The notes: generated by a model not told the origin, from the letters alone. DNA of 58,528 bases, filler included, from Ionaspis alba (GCA_964255285.1; 4 parts of 4 records of this genome joined end to end with filler, not necessarily neighbours in it); one strand, 5' to 3'; counted from the first letter of the whole stretch, positions 1 to 44,029 are shown. Numbers and translations: made by a program.

Positions 1-1824
1 GAGTTTATGTGGCAGGGGGGGAAAGGAGGCGGGAGGACGATTAGTATGGCGGGAAATGGGTTCTCGGTGGATGTGGAGTTTGTGGAGGGGAGGGTGATGG
101 GTGTGGTGTTGAGTTTTCCGGAGGCGAAGGAGGCGGAGACGGAGGGGACTGCGGTGGTGGGAGCGGAGGTGCTGAGAAGGGATTTGTTGGGCAAAGACGG
201 GGAAAGTGGGTATGTGGAGTTGGAGGCTTTTGCAGGGAATTTGGGAAGATTGGCGAGGATGGGACAGCTTGGGACGGAGGGAGTTAGTTGTTTTGATGCT
301 GTCGAAGGGGTCTGGAGTGCGTTGAGGAAGATTTGGGTGTGGGAGGTTGGGAGGCACAGAGGGGATGGGCAGGCGGAGGAGGAGGTTGAGAGGGAGGTTA
401 TATGTCGGGGGAGTGGGAGACCGAGGATGCATGGGAGAGGGATGGTGGGGTTGAGGTTGGAGTATTGGATGGAGAGGAGGCTAGTCTCCGCTGGGGCGAG
501 GAAGGGCAAAGAAGCCGAAAAGAAGACGGATGGGAAGACGAAGGATAAAGAGCTCGAGGACGAGGAGAATGAGAAGGTTTGGTCAATGCTGATCGATTGC
601 GAGGCCTTTTCCGCTACGGAATATCCATGCATTCGGGTCTCGGACTCCTGGGTCTCGGAAGCTATCGAGAAGCCAATGCTCATGGACGACAACCTTTTCA
701 CTGGCGATAATTCAAGCATTGATTGGCAAGAACCTCCTTCTACATTCACCTCCCAGGCAAGCAATACAGATCCAGAAGCCATGAACATCGACTCCGACCT
801 CCTCCTGTCCGGAAAACTTCCCAATGTCCGCTTCGTGGCTCGCTTGGATCCACCAGTCACAGTGCCGCTGCAAACAGCCATCCAGATCTTCAATTCAGTC
901 GGGACTCCATTAGGTCCTGAGTTTTACCAGACAACTACATACATGAGTTTGCTTATTCCCTCTTCTTCTAAGCAGCCGAAATCTCAGTCGAAGAAACCCA
1001 TACAGGAGGATGTCCTTACATTCCGCCGGACCCTCGATTCATACAAGGAAGATGGCAGTGCAACCTCACACCACCACCTCTACAATCTCACGATACATCA
1101 AGGTAGATGGGCGCGCACAATCACTGATATTCCCTTCTCCCATCCAAAACAGCTTGTGATGATCTTGCCAACACTTCGACAATGGGCTTTCCTAGACAGG
1201 CTTCTCCAACGGACTTTTGCGGTAGACTCTCTATCCGCAGTCTCATCCTCGTTGTCAGCTCAACCATCCACATCAGATACCATCAACGGAACAGGAAGGA
1301 ATCTCTTAAACAACGGCCTTCAGAAATCTTTGCGTCAAAGGAGGTCGAAACAAAACTCCAAGTTCCACAAACACGCTCGTCCTCCTACGCCTTCGGATAC
1401 AGAATCTGACTCCGATCCTCCTCGACCACTACCTTCTACCCCGAAGTCCAAGAAGCCGACCAATTCAGCGCAGTCCGTCGAAAGCCAGCCGGACACCACA
1501 GCCCAGAATCTCGATCCACCCACACGCAAAATCGACCTCTCTCTCAACCTAGCTCTCCTCCCCCGCGTCGAACTCACTGTCAGCGTGCCTCCAAACAGAT
1601 CTTATCCAGGCCATTATAAGCGTGAAGGTTCGAAGGTTCATTTCCATATCACGCCAGGCGCGGAAATTAGTGCTGTATGGGACAAGACCGGTTGGAATAG
1701 TTCGGAGGCCACAGAGGGTGAAAATCTGGAAAGGGAGGATCAAGAGAGGAAAGCTGTTCGTCTCTTGAGCTTGAGTGAGGATTTGGGCATTGTGGGTGAG
1801 TGGATGGGGAAGTATAGAAGATGA
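1..1824 (+). CDS. MED1: Mediator complex subunit Med1, 5'-truncated by the window edge
   Basis: Long ORF with motifs recalled from Pezizomycotina Med1 (RTISMAG..VDVEF, GRPRMH.RG.VGLRLEYW, RFVARLDPPVTVP, IPFSHPKQL..ILPTLRQWA); stop TGA 1822-1824. Confidence 0.8.
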   Translation, partial: EFMWQGGKGGGRTISMAGNGFSVDVEFVEGRVMGVVLSFPEAKEAETEGTAVVGAEVLRRDLLGKDGESGYVELEAFAGNLGRLARMGQLGTEGVSCFDAVEGVWSALRKIWVWEVGRHRGDGQAEEEVEREVICRGSGRPRMHGRGMVGLRLEYWMERRLVSAGARKGKEAEKKTDGKTKDKELEDEENEKVWSMLIDCEAFSATEYPCIRVSDSWVSEAIEKPMLMDDNLFTGDNSSIDWQEPPSTFTSQASNTDPEAMNIDSDLLLSGKLPNVRFVARLDPPVTVPLQTAIQIFNSVGTPLGPEFYQTTTYMSLLIPSSSKQPKSQSKKPIQEDVLTFRRTLDSYKEDGSATSHHHLYNLTIHQGRWARTITDIPFSHPKQLVMILPTLRQWAFLDRLLQRTFAVDSLSAVSSSLSAQPSTSDTINGTGRNLLNNGLQKSLRQRRSKQNSKFHKHARPPTPSDTESDSDPPRPLPSTPKSKKPTNSAQSVESQPDTTAQNLDPPTRKIDLSLNLALLPRVELTVSVPPNRSYPGHYKREGSKVHFHITPGAEISAVWDKTGWNSSEATEGENLEREDQERKAVRLLSLSEDLGIVGEWMGKYRR

Positions 1825-14599: not shown

Positions 14600-14699
14600 N
14601 NNNNNNNNNNNNNNNNNNNNNNNNNNNNNNNNNNNNNNNNNNNTTAATTAATTAANNNNNNNNNNNNNNNNNNNNNNNNNNNNNNNNNNNNNNNNNNNN
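14600..14699. other. Artificial scaffold linker (N-TTAATTAATTAA-N)
   Basis: 100-nt spacer containing a stop-in-all-frames 12-mer; same design as at 29267 and 43930. Confidence 0.95.
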
Positions 14700-14957
14700 C
14701 CGTCGAAATGGAAGCTATCGCGCATATGTCCCACAAATTTTGACTCGTACCGCCGAGTTACCCTAGCTGGCTAAATCTATACTGCTCCATATCACTGGTC
14801 ACCCGTGTCTCCGGTCTTCGAGCTCAGCCGCCTCCAGCTTGATCTCGCGGGCGCGTCAATTGCGAGGAGTCGCTCTCCGATCTAAAATAGTACTGTTAGA
14901 CTTTATGCTGAACCGGAGTTCTCGGGTCTAATGTTTTTGCCTTACTCGAAGCGTAAC

Positions 14958-15464
14958 TCATTTCTGGCTGATGCTCGTAGGCTGAGCTTTGGCCGCCTCT
15001 CCGATGGCTGGACTCCGGATGCTGCCGCCACAGTGACGTGGTAAGGGTTCGCTCTAACATCGGTCGGGACACGCTTACGCCTCTTCCTCGACAGACTTCG
15101 CTAGCTCTGTGGCCATCTCCAGCAGATCTTTCCAGATATTGATGAGCTGGTGGCAGTAAGGCTTTGTCAACTTGGTCAATTCTCGGTTATGGAAGTCCTG
15201 GAGACTACGGATCGGAAGGTTCTGCTGGCTTGCGAGCTTGGAATCGGTCTCAGCTAACCATTCAACCGTCTCTGCCCCACACGCTTTGCAAATACGGATC
15301 AATTCTTTGGAATTTTCGGGCAGTAATGCAGGAAACCCAATGAGTGAGCTGCGCACGGTAGGAACGATAGTCTTGACATCCTCTGTCTCTGTGACCATCC
15401 TACATACGTAACTGAAGAGCGCGGTAGGGTCTCCTGCAGATGGCTGGAAATCTTCCATCGGCAT
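14958..15464 (-). CDS. Orphan helical protein, tandem-array copy 1
   Basis: 129-aa first exon ends at GC|GTAAGC; 57-nt phase-2 intron 15022-15078; short exon 2 to TGA ~14958; a second canonical intron at 14882-14945 (GTAAGG..CTAAC..TTTTAG) makes the 3' structure uncertain. Confidence 0.55.
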
Positions 15465-16089
15465 GTCTTCACGCTGTCTTATTGTTTGGGTATTCTTGCC
15501 GAGTCAAGAGAAGCGTTTCGAAGACCTTGAAGTGGAGCGCGATGTTGTTCTTCACACCAAATACTGTATAATGTTAGCATTTGTATGCTAGGTCCGTGAG
15601 TCTCAAGGATCATCATATTACTGCTCTTTGTCCGGAGTGGAAGCAATGGCCGAAGATTGTCTGTAAAGAAGAAACTGTTAATGTTGTAGGGAGTTGTTGT
15701 TTCCCATAGGTATGGAGGCTGCACGAGATAGCAGAATGGGCGTCAGCTAATACTCAACACAATATTATCGTCAACAACTTTCGTGTTCAGAGTGATCTTT
15801 ACGAGTTCTCTGTCAATATCTCACCCTTCTTCCTAAAACTAAGCAGTCACTAACACAAACCACGTGTATATCAGCGAGCGACAATCTTGTCATTTTATGT
15901 AGGGTTAGAGGCCGAACTCTCGGTGTCTGTGGCATCAAAATCTCTTTGCCTCTTACAAATTATGAAATGACTTTCTTACACGTCGGGCACCATACCATGC
16001 AAGCCCTCGTTGGATTGAAAGCGCAGCCTGCAAGAAAGCCGATGACCAACAAAGGAGACCCTTGCAAAGCAGTCAGGTCATCTTGTCCT

Positions 16090-16635
16090 TCCTCATGCAT
16101 TACCTTCCGAATCTGTTTTCGCCCGAGCTGAGAGACTCCTCTGGCTCAATTGACCGATTCCAGCTTGATTTCGGGTTCGAGCTCGGGTGGAAGGCTGTGC
16201 TCATCGCCGGCAAGATGCGTTAGTCGTTAATCACATACTGTTTACCGGCTTTAATCTCCTTCTCTCGCTCTTTGCAAGGGTCATGAACTCTCGATAGTCT
16301 TTTAACTTCTTTGTGCACATGTCTCTCTCCTTCTCCCACTCAGGCACTGAGATCTGCCACCCCGGCGTGTTGGCAGGTAACGGATGCGTGGCCATATTAC
16401 GGATCTGCCCTTCAAGCGTATGTATGGGATCATGGTTGATTTGATAGCTCGTCATGCATAGTCTGATCATCTCTTTGAAAATGTTAATTAGGGTTTTGGG
16501 ATGGCGGGAAAAGGTGTAGCAAACTAAAGCGGCTGGAAAGCGGTACAACACAGCTTTGCGTTCGACATCAGCTCTTGCCACTCTTTAAGGTCCCCTTCTG
16601 TGCTTGACACGGCGATTGTCCGTGGTCAGAGACAT
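16090..16635 (-). pseudogene. Tandem-array copy 2, probably disrupted
   Basis: ATG 16635 followed by in-frame TAA 16585-16587, then a 116-codon open frame; intron 16195-16245 (51 nt, GTAAAC donor, or GTATGT donor at 16238) with GACTAAC branch; 3' end approximate. Confidence 0.45.
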
Positions 16636-17108
16636 AGCGAAGCTAGGGAAAGCGGTGGGAGCTGCGGAACGTCTGGTGAAACGGTTTAGTCTTGCGGCTA
16701 TTGGCTTGCTAAGTGAGATTATATCATCAGTATGAGGCCAGCGCGGGGAGTCTGACATACCTCAAGCTCAGTACAACAGTTCACATTTACATAACCTGGC
16801 CAACTGGTACAATGTGATTCCGATTGATGGACGGGTATTTGGTCGTTGAAGTGGTCTGGCTAGTTTGGTGTTTACATAGTGATGTTAGACGAAGCGATAG
16901 TCGCGTGGAGTAGGGCAAACTATTGAGGGGAGCCTCATGTCATACTTGCTCGAATTTAACAAGAGGCACTACCTGCAATACGTACGCCTCAAGTCTTCCT
17001 TCACTAGCACTGTCACCACGTTGGCTTACGTCTCGAGAATCACCTCAACTTGAGTCTAAGAGTCCTGCTTTCCGGCCTAAGGGAAAGCTTAGCTGCTATA
17101 GGTCACAA

Positions 17109-17723
17109 TCAAAGCCGGGCGACTACCTGAAGTTTAGAGTCCAACTGGCCACCCGCACTGAAATCGCCATTCCCCTCTTCCTCCGGGCTCTGATGCTTGG
17201 TCTCGTCAAGCAGCTCTTCTCCGTGCGTGCTCCCAGCCCTATCAGGCTCTATGAGGAAATGGCCGACGCATTATGAGCGGAGACCTTACCTACAACCCTT
17301 CTCCATCCTGTCTTGCACGTGCTCCATCACGCTGTAGTACCTTGGGACCACCTCTCTCTTCTCCTCAACCCAGAGTGCCAATGCCGCAGCATTTTCCTTG
17401 AGGTCTGTAAAGCCGGCAACTCCAAGGTCATAGTTCTCGGTTGTAATCCTCATAGACTGTTTGTCGTCCTCAAGCTCGTCAAGAATGCTGTGACAGGTTC
17501 GATGGGTTCCTTGAGCTTGTTCATAAGTGTCCGAGAGTTTGGCAGAAATTGCCTCGATGCTCATACGGACTGTGTCCAAGATGGAAGGCTGAACCTTGTA
17601 CAAGAGACCGTGAAGCATCGTCTGGACACAGTTCAGCAAATCGTCAATGGTTGTGATTGTTTCAACCTTGGCTTCACGAAATTGGGTCACAACAGCAAAC
17701 AGCATTTCAGCTCTGTCAGACAT
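17109..17723 (-). CDS. Orphan helical protein, tandem-array copy 3
   Basis: ATG 17723 (MSDRAEML...); 51-nt phase-2 intron 17239-17289 (GTAAGG..TGATAG); exon 2 reads RAGSTHGEELLDE...VARL* in frame. Confidence 0.7.
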
Positions 17724-18213
17724 CGCGGGGTAATAGACGAGTAAGAATTGCAATTGTTATCCTGAGAAGTTTGTGACGTGGGATTTTGCTGTTGTTGAAG
17801 AAGCTAGCAGCTCAAAGTGAGGTGGTAAAGCGTCATAAATCAGCCGAACTTGAGGGTTTGCGGAGCTCAAAGATGGCGACAGTTCTTTGATCCATCGCAC
17901 ACTTAGTGCTGTAGAGTTCCTATAACAAAAAGTCAAAGATGGTGAGGCAGTAGAAAAAGCCTTGATTAAAAGATATTTCCCGCAGACAAGTGGCACAACG
18001 CAAGGTCGTCGATGCTCCCTGAGGCCAACTTGTCAGATAGAATTGACCAAGACATAAGCAGATCTCACAACACACGAGCTTCGAGACGTAGCCTACTTTA
18101 GGTTCATCCCTTCTTCGACGTGATTTCCTCCGTCCTAGCAACAGAAGTATGGCAGGTGTACCTTGATATCCAAAGCCCATCACCCTGATTCTAGGAGTAT
18201 TTCCATCATCAAG

Positions 18214-18243
18214 ACCGCCGTCACACCGCCGTCACACCGCCAC
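18214..18243 (+). repeat. 11-bp tandem repeat (ACCGCCGTCAC, ~2.6 copies)
   Basis: Read directly from sequence; between array copies 3 and 4. Confidence 0.8.
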
Positions 18244-18560
18244 AAGACTTGGAACACCACATTCCAGCAGTCTTCTGACAAAGCATCAGTTTATACGTAT
18301 GCCACATAGGGTTAGTTCAATCAGTATATGCGGAGCCAAACAACGATGGGACAGTTGGGGACGAGGAGGACAACACGGAGGGCAAGAAGAATCAAGCAAT
18401 TGCTGATAAGGTGGGTTCGAGGCTGTACAATCCATGTTCTCCACAAGATTCAACGATCAGACCATGTGATTCTGTTCCTATTCGCAAAGAGTCAATCTAC
18501 ACCTTGGGTTGTAAGTCCCATATCCAGCCGACGAGCAGATGTCCAATCCTAAAAAAATGG

Positions 18561-19322
18561 TCAGCTACTGGAAGCCTCTCGGGATTGATTCATTCCGTAC
18601 GCCAGGATCAAAACCACGATCCAAAAGCTTCGGAGAGATTGTGGCGCCCTTGATGCCGTGACCAAGATCTTTCTATTCGTTCTCTCGACCAATATTTCCC
18701 ATTCCTCCGCCGCCACAACCGTACCCTCCTTGCCCTCGAACCCATGTTTATGGCCTGGCCTGATAACCACCACATCTACCTCTAAAGGCGCAAGTGCTCT
18801 CTGCTTTTCCCCCGTAGTGGAAGCATTGACGGTAGGCTCAGTCAAAGTGTGCCTTTCCCTATCATAGAGCATTAGGTGTGAAGACTCAGACCACGGCGGA
18901 TAAACGCACTGGAGTTTGCATTCCATCACTGCCTCAACTTGTTCAGCTAAAGCCCTGTACTTGATGGCAAGCTTGCGTTGTTTGGCGACCCAGGCGGCCA
19001 AAACGTCGATCTCATGCCTCAGTTTCACCAGAGTTTCGGCCCAAGGGTCCAATTCTTCTAACAACTCATATTTGTAGGTTTGAACTTCTCGAACCGTTAG
19101 ACAGAAGTCCTTGACGAATCGAACTCTTCGGTCAACTCGTTCCAATGAACTCTCAATACAGGCCGTAAGCCTATCGACCAATAAAGATACCCATATGTGC
19201 CGCTCTGCGGAGTGTTCGCGATGTCTAGCGTTAACAGGAGGTAAGAGTTCTATCAACTTGGTTTCGAGATTGGCTTGTTGCTCCTTCACATCGTCCAGGA
19301 ATCGTAGGTAGTGATCGGCCAT
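18561..19322 (-). CDS. Orphan helical protein, tandem-array copy 4, with KOW-like segment and hydrophobic tail
   Basis: 253-codon ORF containing an in-frame 51-nt phase-2 intron 18859-18909 (GTGCGT..CTAAT..TGATAG); WVAKQRKLAIKY aligns with copy 3 WVEEKREVVPRY. Confidence 0.75.
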   Translation of the reverse strand: MADHYLRFLDDVKEQQANLETKLIELLPPVNARHREHSAERHIWVSLLVDRLTACIESSLERVDRRVRFVKDFCLTVREVQTYKYELLEELDPWAETLVKLRHEIDVLAAWVAKQRKLAIKYRALAEQVEAVMECKLQCVYPPWSESSHLMLYDRERHTLTEPTVNASTTGEKQRALAPLEVDVVVIRPGHKHGFEGKEGTVVAAEEWEILVERTNRKILVTASRAPQSLRSFWIVVLILAYGMNQSREASSS

Positions 19323-19843
19323 TGGGGAAGTCGTTGTTATACAAAGAATAGAACAGCGTAACGGGTGATTCCATTTAGATGAAGGCTTTCAAACCGGTGT
19401 CTGTGAAGGTCAAGATCCAGACCGAGTAGAACCACGAGTCAGTTACTCAACACAACTACTAGAAGTAGAACCCTAAGCTCATTTTCAGTAATGCACCTAT
19501 ATGCATTGTGCTAATTATTTCGTCAGCCTAAGCATTTCGATCTTAGCTACTGTCTGTGAAAGGCGACATTGAGCTTTTGAATGTGACCATAACATACTCA
19601 TGATATGTCAGGTGGTGGCATAACACAACGAGAATGATCTCAAACCTGCAAGCACCTACGCAATGAAAATTCTCATATTCTACGCTAGAAAAGATCGCAA
19701 ACCATCCTCGATGACACAGCTTTGGAGTCTATTGCGTTTTTCATGCCGCCTTCAGAAGCACCCATCTACAATCCGACTGTATTGAACATCCAACCAAGAA
19801 GCCTGTGTCCTATCCTAGAGCGAGGTTAACTGCCATAATACTA

Positions 19844-20553
19844 TTAGATTGCATCGGCATCGTACCTCAAGACCAACACGACAGCCAAAAACCGAGTCCA
19901 GAATAATCTAGGTCTTTTAGACTTAATCACGATCCCACGATAGGGGAATTTGACCCTCTCATGTCCCTTCATTATTGTCGCTATATCATCTCGCTCCTTC
20001 GATTGCAACAGAGCCTGCTTCTTTTTTGTAGCACGCTTCTTGACCAAAGGTTCTGTCGAAGTGATCCCGATCCTAAAAACCTTTGTCAGAATTCGAAGCA
20101 CGGCAGGAACTAGAGTAGCATGCGTTGGAATTTGATTATTAGCCTCGAAACGTTTGATCAGCTTCTCGTAGTTGCGAATAAGATCCCTCTTCTCCTTGGA
20201 GAATTCCATCCATCTTTCGAGCTTGTTGATCAAATCTTAGATGGCGTCTTTCTCAGCCTTAACTTCTCTGAGCGGGACGGCGTGGATAATGTATGTTCAG
20301 TCAAGAAGAAGCATTCGTTAGTGAACGACCTGCGTCATGTTATCATATTCATCCAATTCGGCCACGACACGACGTAGAGCGACTGTCGACTTGTAAGGTG
20401 CATTCTGTCCTTCGTGATTGAGACTTTCCGAGCGAAGGAGGCAAAGATGAAGACTATGACTATGATATGGAGCCATCCTTCGAACTCAGACTTTAGGTTT
20501 GGATACGGCTGCTGAACGTCGTGAGCCATCGTAGCTAGGTTTGCTGGTGGCAT
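19844..20553 (-). pseudogene. Tandem-array copy 5, paralog of copy 4, disrupted
   Basis: Frameshift at ~20390-20490; in-frame stops at 20318-20320 (TAA), 20297-20299 (TGA) and 20237-20239 (TAA); 51-nt phase-2 intron 20073-20123 with GC donor (GCATGC..CTGAC..TTTTAG); C-terminal exon aligns with copy 4. Confidence 0.6.
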
Positions 20554-21125
20554 TTCGACTCTGATGGGAATCAACGACGAGAAGAGCGAGTGGAGTTTGT
20601 GAAGATGTGAATTGAACGTGGAGTTGAGTTTCCTTGAAGGTAAACACTGTACGAAAAGAGCGCGCGTATAGACAATCGCATCAACACCACAATATTACCA
20701 ATCATCATTGGACCAAGATCGAGCACTCGTAGTCGCACGATCCAGGACAGTCAGTAGTTGAGTAGTTCAACACTTGAATTCTGATGCCGTCCTCCCTCGC
20801 GTCGATATCGAGATGTCATTCCCAACGTGAGATTCTCCAAGGCGAACCCGAGCATCATGAGCAAATCAATACAGCCAACGCAGAGTGACCAGATAAAATG
20901 AGATTAAGCCTCAAACCTGCAAGCGCCTAGAAAACCGGAAAGCCTCACCCTCGACACCTCAAGCACCATCACAAGCCATTCGCAACATCACAGTATCCAC
21001 GCTTGTAGTGGTACATTCCACATCACAGTCTCGAGCCCCGAAATCAGTAAGTCATAAGCACCGAGTATCCACCAGTGGCATTGTGCACAATCATCACCCC
21101 ATTCCTTCAATTCTGTACTCATTCC

Positions 21126-24100
21126 TTACGTCCTCTCAGCATAAGCCTCCCTTTCCTCCTCAATCAGATCAATTGCATCCCCTAGATTCCCTTCGGCCGC
21201 CTGCGCATAAACAATCAGCCTCTCCACACCCCCATCCTTCTTGCTGCCAAATCCCAATTTTTTGAGCTCCTCCACACAAGTCTGCACAAGACCTACAGTT
21301 TTCGGGTCATGGTGAGCAGGCACGTTACGCTCGCGTTCGTCGTCGCTATTCTGGACGCGAGGAGGCATGCTAGTGCGAACCGGGAGACGGCTTTGCGGGC
21401 GTGTGGCGGTAGGTACTTCAGGCGCTACACGTGGAATTCTGCTTGACGATGCTCGAGCTGGTGGAGGGGCAGATTCGCGTAAGAAAGAGTCCCATTCGAC
21501 GCGGCCACTGCCATCGAAGTAGGCTGAGTAAGGACGACGTGGCGGTCCGGCAGCGAAACGATCATGCAGTCCGGAGACCGTAGCGCTGCGGCGAACACCT
21601 TCCATGAGCTGATGGCGGTGGATGGTGGCAGTCTCGGCTTGTGGATCGAAGGGTCTCACGAGGCGTGCACCAGGAGCCGCTGCACCAAGGCGCATGGGAG
21701 AGACCGGAGAGGGCGGGGACTGACCGAGACCAGTCATACGACGGAAGAAGTCACCGGATGATTCAGTGTCTGAGGAACTGTTACCACGCTGCAACCAGGC
21801 GCTAGGGTAGACCTTTGGCTGGGTGGGGTCCATGGCCTTGGCGAAGGGCGCGGAGTCTTCCTGATTTTCCGGTACTTTGGTTTCAGCCTTGGGAGCGTTG
21901 GGGCGCGAGGGGACAAGAGGCTCCATGCTTGGGAGTGGAGGGAACTGTGGTGCTGCGGAAGACTTTTTATTCTCGAATTGTTCCAACGAGGGAAGTCTGG
22001 CCGTAACGAGAGGCGACTTATCTTGACTTCCGTCAAAGCGGTTGAGGTCTTCCGCGAAGCAGTCAGCGGCCAGCTCGGGATTCTGTCCTGGTTGATAGGA
22101 AGCTTTGACCCCTACGGGATTTGATAGCCTCTTGTTACGTTCATCGTATGTTCCGTGCGCTTTGTTCTCTTCAGTAGTCATGGGGCGTGTTGGAAGCTTG
22201 CGAATGGCGCTCATGGATTTGGAGTGCCGTAATAGAGCAGCCGCAGCTGTAGGAACTCTTGTCGCATGAGGTTCCGGATAAGTACTGAAAGTGTTAGGCG
22301 TTTCGTGAGAACCCCGACGAAGATCGTTGTAAGATGGAGAATGCCAGATACTTGGTTGATTGAACTGCCGAGCCGTTGGACGCTCAGCAGCAGCGCCGTA
22401 CGACCTTAGCTGGGCGTAAGCTTGGCGTCCAGGGGGGATGCTACCATAGCCCGGATTGTCTCCACGTTCTGGATTCACGGCCTCAGGAAAAGCTTGGACA
22501 TCTCTAACCTCTGACTTTGAGGTTGGTCGGAAGGATCGTTCTTGCGGAGGAACATAAGAAGCTTGCGGCTGGGACTTCGGAGGCAAAGGACGATGAAGCT
22601 CAGAACTCCTTCGCGATACATGTCGAACTGGTGACCGACTTCGTGAACGACTATGCCAGCGTGGAGCAGCCATAGAAAATGGTCGAGATTTGGGCTGACG
22701 GTATGCTGGCGGAACATACACGTATGGCACCTTTCTGTGGGATCGAGAAGTCTCGTGTCCTTGGCTGCGACCTCGAGCCTCCGGGTCACAGGGCAAGGGA
22801 CTGGGGATGTGCCTGAAGCTAATACCGGGACTGGGACGTTTGGCCTGTTCAAATTCTTCCTCGAGCTTCTTGGCAAATTTCTGAACTTCAGCAGAACTCT
22901 CTTTCTCCTGGGTCGGCTCATCAACGAATCTGACGGTCCGTAGCGTTGGTTCCGGTAATGTTGAGATCACGCGACTGGGTGGGCTGCGAGAACTAGGCTG
23001 ATGAGCAATGTTGGCTCTTTCGGACCCAGCTCCGTTTGGACGCGGTACTTCTGCAACGGTAGGATTGATTTGAGCATGGTCTTCGTGGTTGTCAGATCTT
23101 ATTGAAGCACCAAATCGCCATTCTGAATCACGACTTGGCTGAGGTTGCTCCGGGACAGTGCCCACAATGGCGACGTATGGGCGACAGCCCTCCCACTGCC
23201 GGCGACTAAGCTCTTCTGCAAAAATGATGAGTGATGTTCAGGCGGATCGAGAGCTCTTTGACTCACTAATTATGAGCTTGACTTGTTCATCTTCCCCTCG
23301 CAGGCTACAGATGGCTGTTCGAGGAGCGTTTGGCTTCATGCTGTATATCGATACTCCGCTAACACTGCATCTGTCCCCAACCACATCGAAAACGACTTGG
23401 TATATATGATCCTTAATATCTATCCAGTTGGCATTGGCAGGTATCTGAAGTTACTATCAGCACAACCGACACTGCTCTATCGATGATTAGCTGAACGTAC
23501 TGGACTGATATAGATACAAACGTCCGTACGACCCCCAATTGAGGAATCCTTGGCCTCGTTCAAAATTTTCCGCGCCTCATGAACAGGCCTTACGTGCTCT
23601 AAAGCATCCACGGATGAGAGGCCTCGGCTCAATTTATCGAAGCAGCTCGTGAGCTCGTACAAACTGTTCACAGCAGCACCAACAGCTTGATTGTCAGGTT
23701 TCAAAGGCGCCCACTTGATATTCTGCTCGTTTGAGGAGCTCTCTTCAAGCGTGTTGGCGAGCTGGGTCACAGATCTTTCGAATCCTGCAAGAATGCCCCT
23801 GAGGACATTCTCGGCATTTTGGGGTTCTTCAGAGGCCTGAATATCCAAGGCAAGCTTGTTGTCCGTTATCATCTTCGTAGTGACGTGGTCGCGGATCTGA
23901 GATGTAAGGGTCGTTGCATTGCTGATAATTGATGTTATTGATTGCAACACCAGCTTTCGGGTAGTTGCCTGGAGATAGCCGTCGGGTAGTGTAGACTCCT
24001 TGGGCAGATCGGCTTCTAGTTTTTCAGTCAAGCTCTTCTTTGGTACATGTTGGCTATCTGGCCGAGTAATTTTGGCCAATTCAGCACGGAAAGTCTGCAA

Positions 24101-25384
24101 CAAAGACCCTTCAGCTTCGTGATCGATCTTGGGAATTTCAATTGGCTCCTGTGCTGGTACTGGGGCGGGGTCAACAGGGCGACTGTTTGGTGTAGTAAAT
24201 GCGGACGTAGGTCTGGAGTTGTAAGAAGCCCAGCGGTTGTGATCTTGCATATTTTGTGCTTGGTGCCTGGCCTCTTTGACAGTTTTGAGAGATCTAGAAT
24301 GGCGTATTGGATTGGTCCTGAGCCGCATTCTATTTCCTGCCTCCATAGCCTAGTCCACGAGGTTAGAACTTTCTGATGGAAAGCTGCACGAGATAGTCTC
24401 ACCTGACGCCTTCCCTCCGCGGTGAGATTACCTTCGTGAAAAGAGCCGAGCAGGGGTGCTGCCTCATTGGCCGCCTGTTCTGGCTCGACATCATTCAGCA
24501 CGTCCGATAATCTCATACTCTTTTTATGATGGGATGCATTCTCCGTATCCATGGCGGGTTCTGAAGGAAGCTTTGGGGGATTAGAAGCATGAAACCAGTG
24601 GGTCCGCATGTCGTCCATCAGCCCTTCAATGGAAATGTGGGCTCCGGGAGTGCGGCGGTCACGGTCTTCCCTCAATTCCTGAAGCCGAGAGGTGTCATCG
24701 GACTCATCCATTTGCACACTCAGGTCATCGTCTCTCAGGTAATCAATTTGTGGTTTGGGAAGATACTTGTTATGGAGTTCAGGACGATGGTTATGTTGTT
24801 CCGCCATCGACTCGACAGCATTTGCAGGTACTGAAGACTCTACTGTCACAGCTGATTTTGTCGTCTCCACTTGAGGAAGTAGTGCTCGGGTACGATCTTC
24901 AATTTCTTCCCAGATCTTGATAGAGTCGCCTTCCCGATCAACCTCAAAGACGTGCATTGTTTCAGCTTTAGAAAGATGGCTGAGAGGATTGTAAGATCTG
25001 TTGCTATGATCTCCAGATTCATATTGGGCCGTCCTGCACCGTGGGTACGCAGAAACAGGTTCCTGGAGTCTTTGTGCGAGCTCTATTTGCGAGCCAACCT
25101 GTTGCAAGAAAACATTAGAGCTCTGGCCAACGAAGGCCACGTTGAGGTGAAAAATTTGGGAGACAAAGAAATGAACGAAGGACAGGGAGTCTACATACCG
25201 TGATTACTTCTCCATCATCCTGATCCAGATACTTCAACTTGCTCTCCGGATGCCGATAGACGTTTCTGTCGTACTCCTGTCCAGTAAGACTGACGACAGC
25301 GTCGTAAGAGCGTATCTTTGCCGAGGAGGGGTGACTTGGAAGCAGAGGGCGGCGGAGGTTTCGGATACGAAAAGGACCTAGCAT
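21126..25384 (-). CDS. Large disordered protein with N-terminal PB1-like and C-terminal UBA-like domains
   Basis: LKYLDQDDGEVIT|VGSQIELAQRL (acidic OPCA-type PB1 motif) across intron 25099-25198; intron 24350-24402 joins the next ORFs; C-terminus CVEELKKLGF...AAEGNLGDAIDLIEE is UBA-like; exons at 23200-23530 not resolved. Confidence 0.65.
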
Positions 25385-26289
25385 GACTGCAAAAGACCAG
25401 ATGGTAATTTAGATGCTTGAGAGATGTGGAAGGATATTGTTATCCGGATGCTGCACAAAGTAATCAAGATAGCGAGTATTGTAGTGAATTCTTGCGCAAG
25501 CAAGGCTGCCTGGCTGTCTGCGTCACGTAGCTGCGTACGCGGCTTGGCCTGACTACCAGATGATGATAGCCATGAACACAAAGTCAGTTTAGATGCTCCT
25601 GCTCTATCGCTTGCTTGGTATTATTTCCTAGGTCATATTCGTCGCTGAATGAGGTGGAGCGCAGACGGGGAGACGAGTGTCGTGAAGTGGAGTAGGCAGC
25701 TGAGTTGACGATGGCGGGGAGTTGCCTGCCAAGCTTACACTGCATGGAATCGAGGCACTACGGAACTGTGAACGCTAGTCTATATTGGGACAGTTATCCA
25801 GAGAGTGACGGATTGAATAGCCTAGTCCCAGAAGACTAAGGGATATTTATGTGTAAAATGTTCTAATAATGTTACAGAATCGTATTGTCACTAGTATTCC
25901 TGTTGCTAATGTTACCCAGAAGACAGGCCTCTATCTAATTCCTTACCTATAATTCGGAAGTGAGATAGTTCATCATCGACTATCATTCCCCACGCCTCCA
26001 AATGTCAGTCGAGCTGTAATGCTGGCCTGATAATTATGCCTCCAGGATTCTGGTATATCATGGCTGGGTAGGCTTTTTCGTAAAGTTCCTGGAAAGGGAC
26101 ACTGGGCAGTGACGATAGCCTGCCTTCGTCATGTCAAGACACATCTGGGAAAAGACGACCAGAGTGAACCCCCAGAGTTGGGTACCGAGCTGTAAGCTTG
26201 CCCCATGACAGATCAGGAAGGCCGGAGGTCAATGTTGACACCCGATATCAAGACTGTAGCATTCCTGGATATGGAGAAGGTCGATCGAT

Positions 26290-28884
26290 TTACCGGTAGA
26301 CCCCTTTCTCAAAGTAGTTGCCATAGCAGTCAACATTTCCTTTAGTAGAACCACTGCCACTCTGGTGCCTGACAACCTTGACCTCTCCAGGCCAATACCC
26401 ATCGACGTATTTCACTCCCATATTGACAGCATTCTCGTACGCAGTCTTCCTCTTCTTCCGATATTCCGCAAGTGCCTGCACCACATCCACTCCGGTGGGT
26501 TTCATAGCGTCTGGCTGCTGCAGTGTTGGTAGCTGGCTAGATTGGAGGCTTTCCATAGGAAGGACCATCTTCTCCGAAAGAGAAGACATTGGAAAATGCA
26601 TGCCTGGTTCGTCAGCTGGTAGCCCACATTCTTCTTCACCAAAGAACGAAAAATCGTTCTCTGCAGCGGCCCAGAAGGCTGCTGTGTCGGGATCACCTAT
26701 AGAAGAGCTATGTCGTTGGTGCTTCCAGCCACTGAAGGTTGGTGTACGAGGAGATAGAGAACCCTCCACCACAGAAGAAGGCGCAGATTTCTCGGCTGCC
26801 ATTTCCAAGACGATCTGTTGAAGTGCAAAAAGCTCTTTTGTTCGGTATAGATGATGGGCAGATCTTGGTCTTCCGGCAATATGCGTATTTGCATTTTCCA
26901 GGCTGGCTTGGACGGCCGCTAGATGAGCCTCCTCGGCACAATTTACAATAAAAGATTTCAAAGAGTCGACCACACGACCGTCTTTGTCAATAAGAGGGAC
27001 ATCTGTCAGAACCAGAGTCTGAAGACTGGGAATTGCGCCAGGTATAAGCCCTCGAGGAAGATCTGGATTTCTTGCTCGTAGTTCGCGCCGCTTCTCCTCC
27101 AGGATTCTTATCCTTCTTGATGAGTCATTTGTACTATTGGTTGCGCTCGAAGAACCGGCTTCTTCTGGAAGAGATGTATTCGTCGGGGCTTTTTTGAAAG
27201 GGCCGCTGATGCCGTTCACAGCTTGAGCCATCGGACCGAGCCCGGTAGCGCTGAGAATCACAGGTTCCTCGTCGTCCACAAAATCCGACGCCATCTTTGA
27301 CAGATCGACTTCTGGGGCGAACACAGGCTCCCGTTTGATCTCATGATTTTCTTGGGTTTCGAAAGATCGCCCATGAGCGTTGTCGACGGCAGGTGATATG
27401 ATGAAGTGCATGGGATCACCAGGGAGCTCGTTCCGGGGTGTTGTATATCCGTCAGGCAGTTCGTACACAGGCGCGGTATCATCCATCTCATATCTGCCAG
27501 CCTGTAAGTTACCAAGCTCAGGCCGCGCTGCCTGTTCCGGAGGAAGCTCGCATGGTGACGGTATATCATCCTTGAGAAGAAAAGCTTCTGTCACCACGGA
27601 GTGGTGGATTCTCAGGGACGTCAAATTATCTGATGCGCACCGCTCAAGAAAAGGCGTGAGCTTCTCTAATCCTGGTAGCAGATCCGAGACCTCTAGTAGT
27701 CGGGAGACTGAAGAGCGGGTCCGAGGTCTTCCCACAGCCTTTGCAGTATCAAGCGTTCCAGCATCGAGGACATGCAGGCTCTTGCTCTTTACAAGACTAG
27801 CAAGCCCTTCTACAGAAACGAAGTTGTTCGCGATGTAAAGGTGAGTTATCCCAGCGTGTGGCAGATCTTCACTCGGCAGTCTGCTAACAACGCCACGGGT
27901 CAGCCGCCTCACAAATCGTTCGTCAATATCGTCTCCGCGAAATTCATCCATGATATGAAAGTCATGTCTTGGAACACCCGATGGCCAATCATCCTGCGCT
28001 ACGCCAGACAGAGATCTGTCTTGATGTCTTTGAAATGCTGGGATACTACTCGAGTGGTGGAAGCAAGTGCTCAGGAGTGTCCTCACAGCTGTATCCGTAA
28101 TCCTGTTGTCTCTGATATCAAGGCTTCGCACACGGATACCAATAGCAGGGGCAAGGACCTCGATATCATCGTCTCGTAGATGAACATGGCGCAACTTCAA
28201 GACTTGTAGCCCGTGCATGCACTGGAAGGTCGCTAGAACCGAGTGATCTCTTGCGGCAAGGGTGTTTGAGAGGTCAAGAAAAACAAGATTTGGCCAGAGC
28301 AAGAGCGCCCCAGCAAGACTTGCCGAGGTGGTATTGGAGCAATAAGCCGCGATGAGCAATCTGAGATGGAAAGTAAAGGTTATAGGTCGAGACGTGGAAG
28401 GCTGCTCGGGTGCGCTTCGCCGCAATGCAAGCAAAGCAGAATGGTCAAAGAATGGGAGCTCTGAGACCACTAGGGATTGTAGATTCGGAAGGTGTTCGAG
28501 TACATCTCGAAGCCACTCCGGATGTGGTCCATCGTACAGTTCTGACTGTGCTGGAGGAAGATGCAGAGTATGCGTAAGCTGGCGTACTCTCAAGCGTGCT
28601 CGTGGTAATGTTCTTTTGAACCTGGTCAGAGCCACTAAAAGATATCAGCTCACGTAGATACCTCAATTGTGTAAGAGACGCAAAACCCTACCATAGACTC
28701 TGTCATTCTCAGTCCCAAAATGGGATGCTGGGTTCCCCCAAAGACAAGGCCCAAATATCTCGTTCCATCTTCTACATACCAGTGAAGCTGCACAAAGATC
28801 TGGACTTGGTATGTATTGCGCGACAATCAACCAGTAGTCTCTCGTCGTCGCTTCCTCATAGCTCGGTGGCACCATGGACTCCAT
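26290..28884 (-). CDS. F-box / leucine-rich repeat protein
   Basis: Exon 1 (PPSYEEAT, YIPSPDLCAASLVCRRW) is F-box-like; intron ~28636-28690; LRR units LVFLDLSN, LQVLKLRH, VRSLDIRDN, ITHLYIANN; C-terminal DCYGNYFEKG. Confidence 0.75.
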
Positions 28885-29213
28885 GATGGACTCATGAAGC
28901 TGGTCTTTGTGCTTTCATGGTGGGAGATAAGGGACACGCAGCAGGCACAGCATTCTGTGATCTTCGAAGAAGATCACGCCTTATGTTTGGACGTTCGGTG
29001 CCTGAGAGGGCGCAGTCTGCCTCACAGAACAGAATGTTTCATCTGTGGCGTCATAGGTTGTCGATGATAAGCCCTAGAAGAGCCTCGGCAAAAACAGCCA
29101 TATCAGAAAGCCATCTCGGTATAGAAATACGTTTAGTTCAATTATCTTGACAGGAACAAAAGTGCTAAAAACTGCCATACAACCTCACTCAGGTACTGCA
29201 GAACCCCGCCTCA

Positions 29214-29266
29214 TCACCAATCCCTCGCCCTCAACCCCTCCAAATCCACACTCTCCACATCCACCC
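29214..29266 (-). CDS. Possible C-terminal tip of an unidentified gene (…VDVESVDLEGLRARDW*)
   Basis: G-rich coding-like frame running from the linker to TGA TGA; too short to identify. Confidence 0.3.
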
Positions 29267-29366
29267 NNNNNNNNNNNNNNNNNNNNNNNNNNNNNNNNNN
29301 NNNNNNNNNNTTAATTAATTAANNNNNNNNNNNNNNNNNNNNNNNNNNNNNNNNNNNNNNNNNNNN
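29267..29366. other. Artificial scaffold linker (N-TTAATTAATTAA-N)
   Basis: Same spacer design as 14600-14699. Confidence 0.95.
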
Positions 29367-41185: not shown

Positions 41186-41438
41186 NNNNNNNNNNNNNNN
41201 NNNNNNNNNNNNNNNNNNNNNNNNNNNNNNNNNNNNNNNNNNNNNNNNNNNNNNNNNNNNNNNNNNNNNNNNNNNNNNNNNNNNNTTGAATTCTCGAAAG
41301 GAAGGCGCGATGGTGACAAGGAATCTGGGGAATGCTTGTACCTGCATTAGGCTACTGCAAATCCACTACCAGGCATTGTAACTTCGTTGATGGATAATGG
41401 TATATCGCTATCCTCACGTAATGCCTTGATACAACGAC

Positions 41439-42122
41439 ATGGACGGCAACGGAGTACCTCGAAACCGCAAAGAGCGTCGAGCAGCTGAAAACAACAGAAA
41501 GACCATCCCCCTTGCGCAACCTTCTCGAGATGGGCCGAAGCACAAGACACTGTACGAGATTGCTGCAGAGCGTCAAGCAGAGCTCTCGAAGGGCCAGCCC
41601 TTCACTTCGAAGCCTCCGGACATTGACAACTCAAAAGAGTCCACCTTTGTCACCACCACCATTAATCCAGATGGCAGCCTCTCTGATATCCCTGAACCCA
41701 TCGACGAGCCAATTGGCCCCGTGGGGCAAGCAGTCTTCTTCGCCCTGACCCTTACAATGCTGCACTTCACTCTGGATGTGTTGGTACATCAACAGTACCG
41801 GCAGGCGGAGACGATTGAGTGGAGCATGATCGTCCAGCGCACACTGGTAACCTTCCCAATCCTTGGTGCCTTAGTGTATGCCCTCAAGGCTCGTGCCAAC
41901 GCTATTTGGGCCCAGGTGCTCTTCTTTGGGCTAAGTGTTGGTGCGGGATGTTACTTGATCTACTCGAGTAACGAAGAGGCGTATTTTGCTGTAATGAAGA
42001 GGGCACCTCCTTTGGGGACTTTGTGGGTCTGGAGTGTCATCGAGATGAGGTTGGAGGTTGCAGTAGGAAGTCTCGTGGCTGTTGGTGGTTATTTCTGGTG
42101 GGGAGGCTATTCGATTTTCTAA
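41439..42122 (+). CDS. Conserved fungal multi-pass membrane protein of unknown function
   Basis: Intronless 227-aa ORF; LTMLHFTLDVLVHQQY, YFAVMKRAPPLGTLWVWSVIE; about four hydrophobic segments. Confidence 0.8.
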   Translation: MDGNGVPRNRKERRAAENNRKTIPLAQPSRDGPKHKTLYEIAAERQAELSKGQPFTSKPPDIDNSKESTFVTTTINPDGSLSDIPEPIDEPIGPVGQAVFFALTLTMLHFTLDVLVHQQYRQAETIEWSMIVQRTLVTFPILGALVYALKARANAIWAQVLFFGLSVGAGCYLIYSSNEEAYFAVMKRAPPLGTLWVWSVIEMRLEVAVGSLVAVGGYFWWGGYSIF

Positions 42123-43929: not shown

Positions 43930-44029
43930 NNNNNNNNNNNNNNNNNNNNNNNNNNNNNNNNNNNNNNNNNNNNTTAATTAATTAANNNNNNNNNNNNNNN
44001 NNNNNNNNNNNNNNNNNNNNNNNNNNNNN
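43930..44029. other. Artificial scaffold linker (N-TTAATTAATTAA-N)
   Basis: Same spacer design as 14600-14699. Confidence 0.95.

Follow-up and report, generated by a model that had tools for sequence, protein, structure and literature searches.

How does a run of small, unfamiliar coding units come to lie side by side on one strand of a fungal scaffold, and do its members descend from a single gene? This question is raised by a 58,528-nucleotide stretch of Ionaspis alba DNA (GCA_964255285.1; filler included; hereafter the window), in which five minus-strand units, numbered 1 to 5 by ascending coordinate, fill one end of the second of four scaffolds (14700-29266; 14,567 bases). An earlier note had described them as five highly diverged copies of one unrecognised, intracellular helical-bundle family, evolving by birth-and-death in a pattern known from conflict loci. 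The reading we favour, which we place slightly above an even chance, is that of a cluster of lineage-restricted ('orphan') coding units in an ascomycete-like fungus, shaped by birth-and-death. That the five units are real open reading frame (ORF) units was readily borne out, with start codons at 15464, 16635, 17723, 19322 and 20553 and a start spacing of 1088-1599 bases (1.1-1.6 kb in the note), all within 6.2 kb and on one strand. The sequence does contain the peptides previously quoted for units 3, 4 and 5, LAKS occurs in units 1 and 2, and the DV and NL pair near the N-termini of units 4 and 5 was found as well, but with five residues between its halves instead of the four first given.

We scored similarity among the units by local Smith-Waterman alignment against 1000-2000 shuffles, using 21 segment pairs in one run and 14 model pairs in another. 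Unit 3 against the N-terminal half of unit 4 reached z 4.5-4.9, and units 4 and 5 reached z 4.9-6.4, the score being attained in either case by 0/1000 and 1/2000 shuffles; the match between units 4 and 5 ran colinearly over about 120 residues, a non-helical region included. Units 3 and 4, and likewise units 4 and 5, were mutual best matches within the array. Local scores were weaker for units 2 and 5 (z 2.4, 64/2000), units 1 and 2 (z 2.0, 105/2000) and units 3 and 5 (279/2000), and all remaining pairs were at chance. A semi-global test, which rewards colinear weak similarity, again returned units 4 and 5 (z 4.9, 1/1000) and units 3 and 4 (z 3.0, 13/1000), together with units 1 and 2 (z 3.7, 2/1000); all six pairs that join units 1 and 2 to units 3-5 were at chance, the best of them being 1-4 (90/1000). 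Over their aligned parts, units 3-5 are 26-33% identical, R and Y of the conserved helix motif being invariant among the three. Units 4 and 5 additionally have in common a stretch with GH and, at their ends, a hydrophobic run that follows R.FW. Units 3, 4 and 5 are thus very probably homologous, and units 1 and 2 are likely to be so, while homology of all five appears doubtful. The shared ancestry that had been proposed for the array therefore stands for at least three of its members (units 3, 4 and 5), but not for the whole.

Splice signals provided a second line of evidence, every intron discussed here being a prediction from such signals. A phase-2 intron is predicted to follow the conserved helix in units 3, 4 and 5. 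Units 3 and 4 have it in one and the same alignment column, and in unit 5 it lies within one codon of the unit 4 position, in the same phase and at a one-codon alignment gap. In units 4 and 5 the alignment extends over the flanking residues, with the helix before and T.TEP after the segment, but not over the 17 codons within it. The shared column and phase offer independent support for the kinship of units 3, 4 and 5, and a conserved intron would date these units to one ancestor.

It is nevertheless conceivable that the units are unrelated neighbours whose similarities reflect chance or helical composition. Within-window BLAST gave E-values of just 0.05-0.5, unit 3 scored better on a spurious ORF antisense to the neighbouring gene (E 0.005), and many pairs were tested. 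At the DNA level, comparison of the units returned nothing below E 0.01, a 20-base match downstream of units 1 and 2 having an E-value of 0.19. Chance would have to account, however, for the colinearity of units 4 and 5 beyond their helical part, for the mutual best matches of units 3/4 and 4/5, and for an intron whose column and phase agree in units 3 and 4, whose position shifts by at most one codon in unit 5 and whose length is 51 nucleotides (nt) in both units 4 and 5. We regard this combination of accidents as highly improbable.

The separation between units 1-2 and units 3-5 persisted in profile searches, which were run against 791 sequences consisting of 786 window ORFs (40 codons or more) and the five models. 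Among the 489 rows returned by a profile of units 3-5, unit 2 came 61st (E 54) and unit 1 came 174th (E 110), and unit 1 was still not recovered when unit 2 was added to that profile. The reverse profile, built from units 1 and 2, listed unit 5 at rank 7 (E 2.6), behind two spurious ORFs, and alignment of the two groups by hhalign yielded a probability of 0.06%. Pairwise, profile and profile-profile tests thus gave no link that would make the array one five-member family. The earlier note had itself named a lack of significant profile-profile similarity between copies as evidence against its proposal, and this lack was found in part, namely between the two groups.

Rapid divergence could in principle have erased such links, in which case all five units would represent one fast-evolving intracellular helical family that selection maintains at a conflict locus (allorecognition or cell death, meiotic drive, germline genes). 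The common layout of the units, with a single strand, a first exon of 117-145 codons ending in a helix, and intron signals next to it, is in keeping with this idea, as are the phase-2 intron predicted for unit 1, like those of units 3-5, and the marginal local match between units 2 and 5. When the units are aligned on a K/R-D/N-Y stretch, the predicted introns furthermore fall 44-48 nt downstream in all five; we gave this little weight because the alignment was chosen post hoc. The array also carries more differences from a second assembly than its neighbour, and those within coding sequence are all nonsynonymous, as detailed below. Against the idea stand the chance-level scores of the cross-group pairs and the profile results, the differing architectures of the unit 1 and unit 4 models, the lack of Pfam cell-death, HET or NACHT matches on the ORFs scanned, and disabling stops in two of the five units. 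Taken together, we consider a single conflict-associated family with erased links improbable.

We then turn to the state of the individual copies. Only unit 4 has an intact ORF; its C-terminal part carries the motifs T.TEP and GH and closes with 13 hydrophobic residues. Unit 3 has no counterpart of this part and stops right after its helical half unless it is spliced. The start codon of unit 2 leads to a TAA at 16585-16587 after 16 codons; a 57-nt intron that would remove this stop was considered and rejected, its signals being poor (GTGTCA...AAG). In unit 5, the frame opened by the ATG stays open for just 72 codons, and an in-frame TAA lies ahead of the conserved part (Table 1). The N-terminal ORF of this unit is out of frame with the conserved part, a second coding-like frame being present at 20321-20485, and the two can be joined only through a weak 98-nt intron (GTGGCC), the joined frame running into the TAA all the same. 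This TAA is no sequencing slip, since neither the X1 contig nor X2 record 7 (20110-20400), both introduced below, shows a difference there. The presence of one intact copy beside truncated and stop-bearing copies fits the birth-and-death process that had been suggested for the array. The array also has more differences from X1 than the neighbouring gene, with 13 as compared to none.

Are any of these units, then, working genes? Codon usage was scored after training on 14 uncurated ORFs of 250 codons or more from elsewhere in the window, one of which (3-923, minus strand) is antisense to Med1 and probably non-coding. The five main ORFs scored 0.096-0.164 bits per codon, compared to 0.068-0.184 for the training ORFs, with values of 0.138-0.14 for unit 1, 0.109 for unit 2, 0.158-0.164 for unit 3 and 0.096 for unit 4. 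Among 39 spurious, gene-overlapping ORFs of 90 codons or more (maximum 0.101), none reached units 1, 2 or 3 or the unit 5 segment labelled 5b, and two reached unit 4. The other five frames mostly scored lower, with the exceptions of a shifted frame in unit 2 (0.083 versus 0.109) and two upstream frames in unit 5. With such gene-like codon usage, the units look like coding or recently coding DNA. Moreover, a stop-free run of 275 codons at unit 4 has, by simple arithmetic, a chance expectation of about 0.001 in 6.2 kb. No 8- or 9-mer was found upstream of four or more of the five units, and 7-mers there remained within the shuffle range. An origin from transposons or by repeat-induced point mutation (RIP) was considered as well and discarded; no transposase or reverse-transcriptase match was obtained, and the RIP indices were normal (TpA/ApT 0.74; (CpA+TpG)/(ApC+GpT) 1.21).

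For a view of variation, we compared the window with contigs from three runs of one study, termed X1, X2 (at low depth) and X3, the last of which yielded no contig that could be placed. In X1, a single contig of 14,614 bases covers the whole stretch under study, its ends lying no more than about 50 bases from those of the scaffold. The two assemblies thus break at the same points, and X1 may represent either the sample behind the window or a sister isolate. Thirteen sites (10 transitions and 3 transversions) and one 1-base indel set it apart from the window, all within 15734-19787, and no difference was seen in 20931-23400, where 2.3 kb of the neighbouring gene was compared. Under an even spread, zero of 13 in the neighbouring gene has a probability of about 0.013 by simple arithmetic. 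X2 shares one of the X1 differences and adds three of its own. Within the main ORFs, one difference lies in unit 2 and three lie in the last 24 codons of unit 4, all four being nonsynonymous; those in unit 4 (L230P, S232G and I239V) are clustered within 27 bases at 18608-18634, and the only change inside the hydrophobic run is from I to V. This pattern fits weak constraint, the counts being too small to split neutrality from diversifying selection.

These data bear most directly on the possibility that no unit is a working gene and that all are decaying relics or transient proto-genes under neutral drift, unit 4 merely being free of stops so far. The stops in units 2 and 5, the truncation of unit 3 relative to unit 4 and the four nonsynonymous changes out of four would be expected under drift, and coding sequence (4 in about 2.9 kb) shows no clearly lower density of differences than non-coding sequence (9 plus the indel in about 3.4 kb). 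The searches described below, in which no relatives were found, and the low language-model value of unit 4 (1587, compared to a mark of 2300) point in the same direction. On the other hand, codon usage in the proposed frames matches that of real genes and beats antisense or shifted frames, units 3 and 4 retain their intron signals and phase, an open frame of 275 codons is very unlikely to last by chance, and X1 preserves the hydrophobic run of unit 4. We therefore consider it unlikely that the array consists of relics or proto-genes throughout.

The orphan character of the units was assessed in searches for relatives. Unit 4 retrieved only itself in a search of 5.8 billion clusters (1 of 1589 candidates) and in a word-free phmmer search of 1.84 billion representatives, and units 3 and 1 likewise matched only themselves in large protein libraries, these three being the units searched there. 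Pfam-A hmmscan of the six unit ORFs (E up to 1) produced two sub-threshold rows for unrelated families, both on unit 3. Of the 70 ORFs in 14700-21100 with at least 45 codons, none reached a Pfam cut-off, three showing rows at E 0.03-0.09 for unrelated families. None of 596 pattern matches in metagenome contigs was confirmed, and in sequence-profile searches of the PDB units 3-5 reached E 0.057 at best and units 1-2 E 0.93. The ESM Atlas gave no usable match for unit 4, whose language-model recognition value is the one quoted above, and for unit 1 returned only bacterial 'hypothetical protein' clusters (0.93-0.95) that shared 123-143 of 256 features, which is the chance level. The earlier statement that the units are unrecognised thus holds, both with regard to relatives, in the searches run for units 1, 3 and 4, and with regard to Pfam families.

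The same searches speak to the suggested conflict locus. No HeLo- or SesA-type Pfam match was obtained, and the scaffold ORFs scanned against Pfam contained no HET, NACHT, NLR or transposon domains, leaving the idea without positive evidence; we consider a conflict-locus reading quite improbable. Still less probable, in our view, is a single, very fast-evolving family of helical intracellular proteins whose copy number and sequence would be driven by genetic conflict, perhaps as a poison/antidote or allorecognition system with no relation to HeLo, HET or Spok. Activity and membrane association would then fall to unit 4, with the truncated copies serving as modulators or being relics. The array would acquire greater weight only if it were polymorphic between strains and came with an incompatibility, drive or toxicity phenotype, and nothing here points that way.

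What kind of protein might the units encode? The AlphaFold2 model of unit 4 (mean predicted local distance difference test (pLDDT) 54.9; predicted template modelling score (pTM) 0.25) contains helices at residues 2-26 and 38-136, with pLDDT of about 60-87, while its C-terminal 120 residues fall below pLDDT 50. Unit 1 was modelled as six short helices (pLDDT 65.9, pTM 0.55). The 'helical bundle' of the earlier note is accordingly supported as far as helicity goes, in both models made, but not as a bundle, unit 4 being dominated by one helix of roughly 100 residues. Foldseek found no match at E 0.001 or better for either model. VIA-align listed generic coiled coils for unit 4 (best Z 7.7) and mixed unrelated targets for unit 1 (best Z 7.0); no Z value was as high as 8, and neither model rose above the noise level for helical proteins. 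HeLo, SesA and MLKL were not among the fold-search rows listed for these two low-confidence models. Modelling two copies of unit 4 residues 1-140 together gave a score of 0.00, which counts neither way.

The C-terminal hydrophobic run comprises 13 residues in both units 4 and 5 and includes an arginine in unit 5. In a 19-residue window, its Kyte-Doolittle value reaches 1.23 in unit 4, below the usual mark of 1.6 for a membrane span, and about 1.45 in unit 5. The run is too short for a classical tail anchor, and in unit 4 it does not amount to a bilayer-spanning C-terminal helix. The N-terminal ORF of unit 5 contains a membrane-like hydrophobic segment (19-window 1.98), which qualifies the earlier remark that signal peptides are not evident.

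Based on these observations, we propose the following course of events. In the gene from which units 3-5 descend, the N-terminal half would have been alpha-helical and separated, by a phase-2 intron just behind the conserved helix, from a C-terminal part that closed with a short hydrophobic stretch. Tandem duplication of this ancestor probably gave rise to units 3-5, followed by fast divergence and by decay, which would have left unit 4 intact, unit 3 truncated and unit 5 disabled by its stop and its GC donor. Units 1 and 2 would be a second old pair or, alternatively, very remote members of the family of units 3-5; unit 2, with no clean start, would fit the same picture of decay. Unit 4, and perhaps units 1 and 3, could give rise to a cytosolic helical protein. 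In unit 4 the long helix would be a likely contact surface, and the hydrophobic end may mediate peripheral membrane binding or self-association rather than act as a true transmembrane anchor. Genes of this kind would probably be dispensable, condition-specific and weakly constrained.

Several points weigh against this proposal. Units 3 and 5 are linked only via unit 4, their direct comparison being matched by 279/2000 and 736/1000 shuffles, and local alignment gives no more than a marginal link between units 1 and 2 (105/2000). With P at about 1e-3 and 10-21 pairs tested in each run, the statistical case for similarity is modest, and shuffling keeps composition, not helical periodicity, which could inflate the score of units 3 and 4. 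The models of units 1 and 4 are single-sequence predictions of low confidence, and the splicing of the units is predicted from sequence signals, their expression being presumed. The designation 'orphan' may partly reflect how densely the libraries sample close relatives of this fungus. X1 is perhaps the very sample that was assembled into the window, and four nonsynonymous changes out of four are compatible with neutrality and hence also with non-function.

Table 1. Coordinates of the five units, their predicted introns and the neighbouring gene, counted from the first letter of the window
Feature	Position	Strand	Description
Unit 1	14824..15464	minus	exon 1 15079-15464 (128 codons + 2 nt); unspliced 129-codon ORF
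Unit 1, candidate exon 2	14824-14881	minus	stop included; splice predicted from signals only
Unit 1, candidate intron	14882-15078	minus	197 nt, GTAAGC...CTAAC...TAG, phase 2
Unit 2	16093..16635	minus	main ORF 16234-16584, 117 codons, no ATG at head
Unit 2, possible exon 2	down to 16093	minus	follows 3' intron candidates
Unit 2, candidate introns	16195-16245 or 16195-16238	minus	51 nt, GTAAAC, phase 0, or 44 nt, GTATGT, phase 1
Unit 3	17109..17723	minus	exon 1 17290-17723 (144 codons + 2 nt); unspliced 145-codon ORF
Unit 3, possible exon 2	17109-17229	minus	short, acidic; needs predicted 60-nt intron
Unit 3, candidate intron	17230-17289	minus	60 nt, GTAAGG, phase 2, weak GAG acceptor
Unit 3, conserved helix motif	17304..17384	minus	ends three codons + 2 nt before intron donor
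Unit 4	18561..19322	minus	complete uninterrupted ORF, 253 codons + stop; conserved helix 18921-19001
Unit 4, candidate intron	18859-18909	minus	51 nt, in frame, GTGCGT...CTAAT...TAG, phase 2
Unit 5, conserved part	19844..20266	minus	ORF 19847-20236; in-frame TAA 20237-20239; coding-like codons 20240-20266
Unit 5, intron-like segment	20073-20123	minus	51 nt, in frame; CTGAC, T-run-AG; donor GC, not GT
Unit 5, N-terminal ORF	20335..20553	minus	from ATG 20553, 72 codons
Neighbouring large gene	about 21126-25408	minus	ORFs 21126-23237, 23477-24349, 24028-25203, 25115-25408

The window consists of four concatenated scaffolds with spacers at 14600-14699, 29267-29366 and 43930-44029, each made up of 44 N, TTAATTAATTAA and 44 N, with stops in all six frames. 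Plain gaps of 100 N occur within scaffolds, unlike the spacers between them. As the spacers join scaffolds, features flanking a spacer are not genomic neighbours. The scaffold end that had been placed at 14700 was confirmed by the spacer that separates the second scaffold from the preceding one, and the zinc-finger gene to the left of 14700 is consequently no true neighbour of the array. The label 'PB1/UBA', previously given to the large gene on the other side, was not upheld by Pfam, which gave no match at E up to 5 on two look-alike segments. On the same scaffold, a 784-codon minus-strand ORF at 26293-28644 has a weak LRR_4 row (E 1.3e-4, 22.5 bits; cut-off 27).

Upstream of the unit 2 start codon, a 52-nt minus-strand segment at 16709-16760 has near-consensus intron signals (GTATGT...CTGAT...TTAG) and may be an intron in the 5' untranslated region, which would place the transcript start of unit 2 further upstream. 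A plus-strand ORF of 120 codons at 16914-17273, antisense to the possible exon 2 of unit 3, was examined as a convergent gene; it is probably no gene, given a codon score of just 0.023 and the lack of any Pfam match. Elsewhere in the window, Pfam content included Med1, LCAT, squalene synthase, MCM7 and cytochrome c1, along with Rad5 with a fungal UBA-like domain and Zn2Cys6 (Zn_clus)/Fungal_trans_2 regulators. On another scaffold, a plus-strand ORF at 41430-42119 has a strong match to DUF7719 (E 1.4e-32); its product is a conserved fungal protein without assigned function.

How does the array compare with known systems? SNAREs are tail-anchored coiled-coil membrane proteins, and units 4 and 5 resemble them in that their N-terminal half is helical, a signal peptide is lacking and the extreme C-terminus is hydrophobic. 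They differ from SNAREs in the shortness of this run (just 13 residues), in its low Kyte-Doolittle values, in the arginine within the unit 5 run and in the absence of a Pfam match; nor is there a SNARE-type heptad motif beside the tail, since the preceding segment is non-helical and strand-like in the model. The HeLo, HeLo-like and SesA domains are N-terminal cell-death domains of fungal allorecognition systems, and MLKL contains a four-helix bundle. Like these, the units would be small, intracellular and alpha-helical without a signal peptide, and some of the known examples also lie in variable regions. However, no Pfam model whatsoever reaches its cut-off on any unit, the unit 4 model is one long helix, and no partner NLR gene of the kind found in HeLo/SesA systems was seen on the scaffold, whose long ORFs gave only the LRR_4 row below the cut-off and which ends on the other side of the array.

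The closest parallel may be drawn with the lineage-specific gene clusters of Neurospora crassa. According to a survey in this fungus, more than 63% of 670 lineage-specific genes reside in clusters of 2-21, which gather near telomeres and are interspersed with HET-domain genes (PMC10684091). These clusters resemble the array in being small genes in a row with no known domains and no homologues beyond a narrow lineage; in the array, the five units are adjacent, and units 1, 3 and 4 matched only themselves. In contrast to the N. crassa clusters, the array is placed by a scaffold end, and no HET-domain match was found in the ORFs scanned. Such clusters are common in filamentous ascomycetes, and the phenomenon is known. 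If the favoured reading of a lineage-restricted cluster shaped by birth-and-death is true, the array would illustrate once more how local duplication lets filamentous fungi gain and lose lineage-restricted genes. As a case it would be unsurprising but tidy, with intact, truncated and stop-bearing copies side by side, and in this respect useful for the study of gene birth and death.

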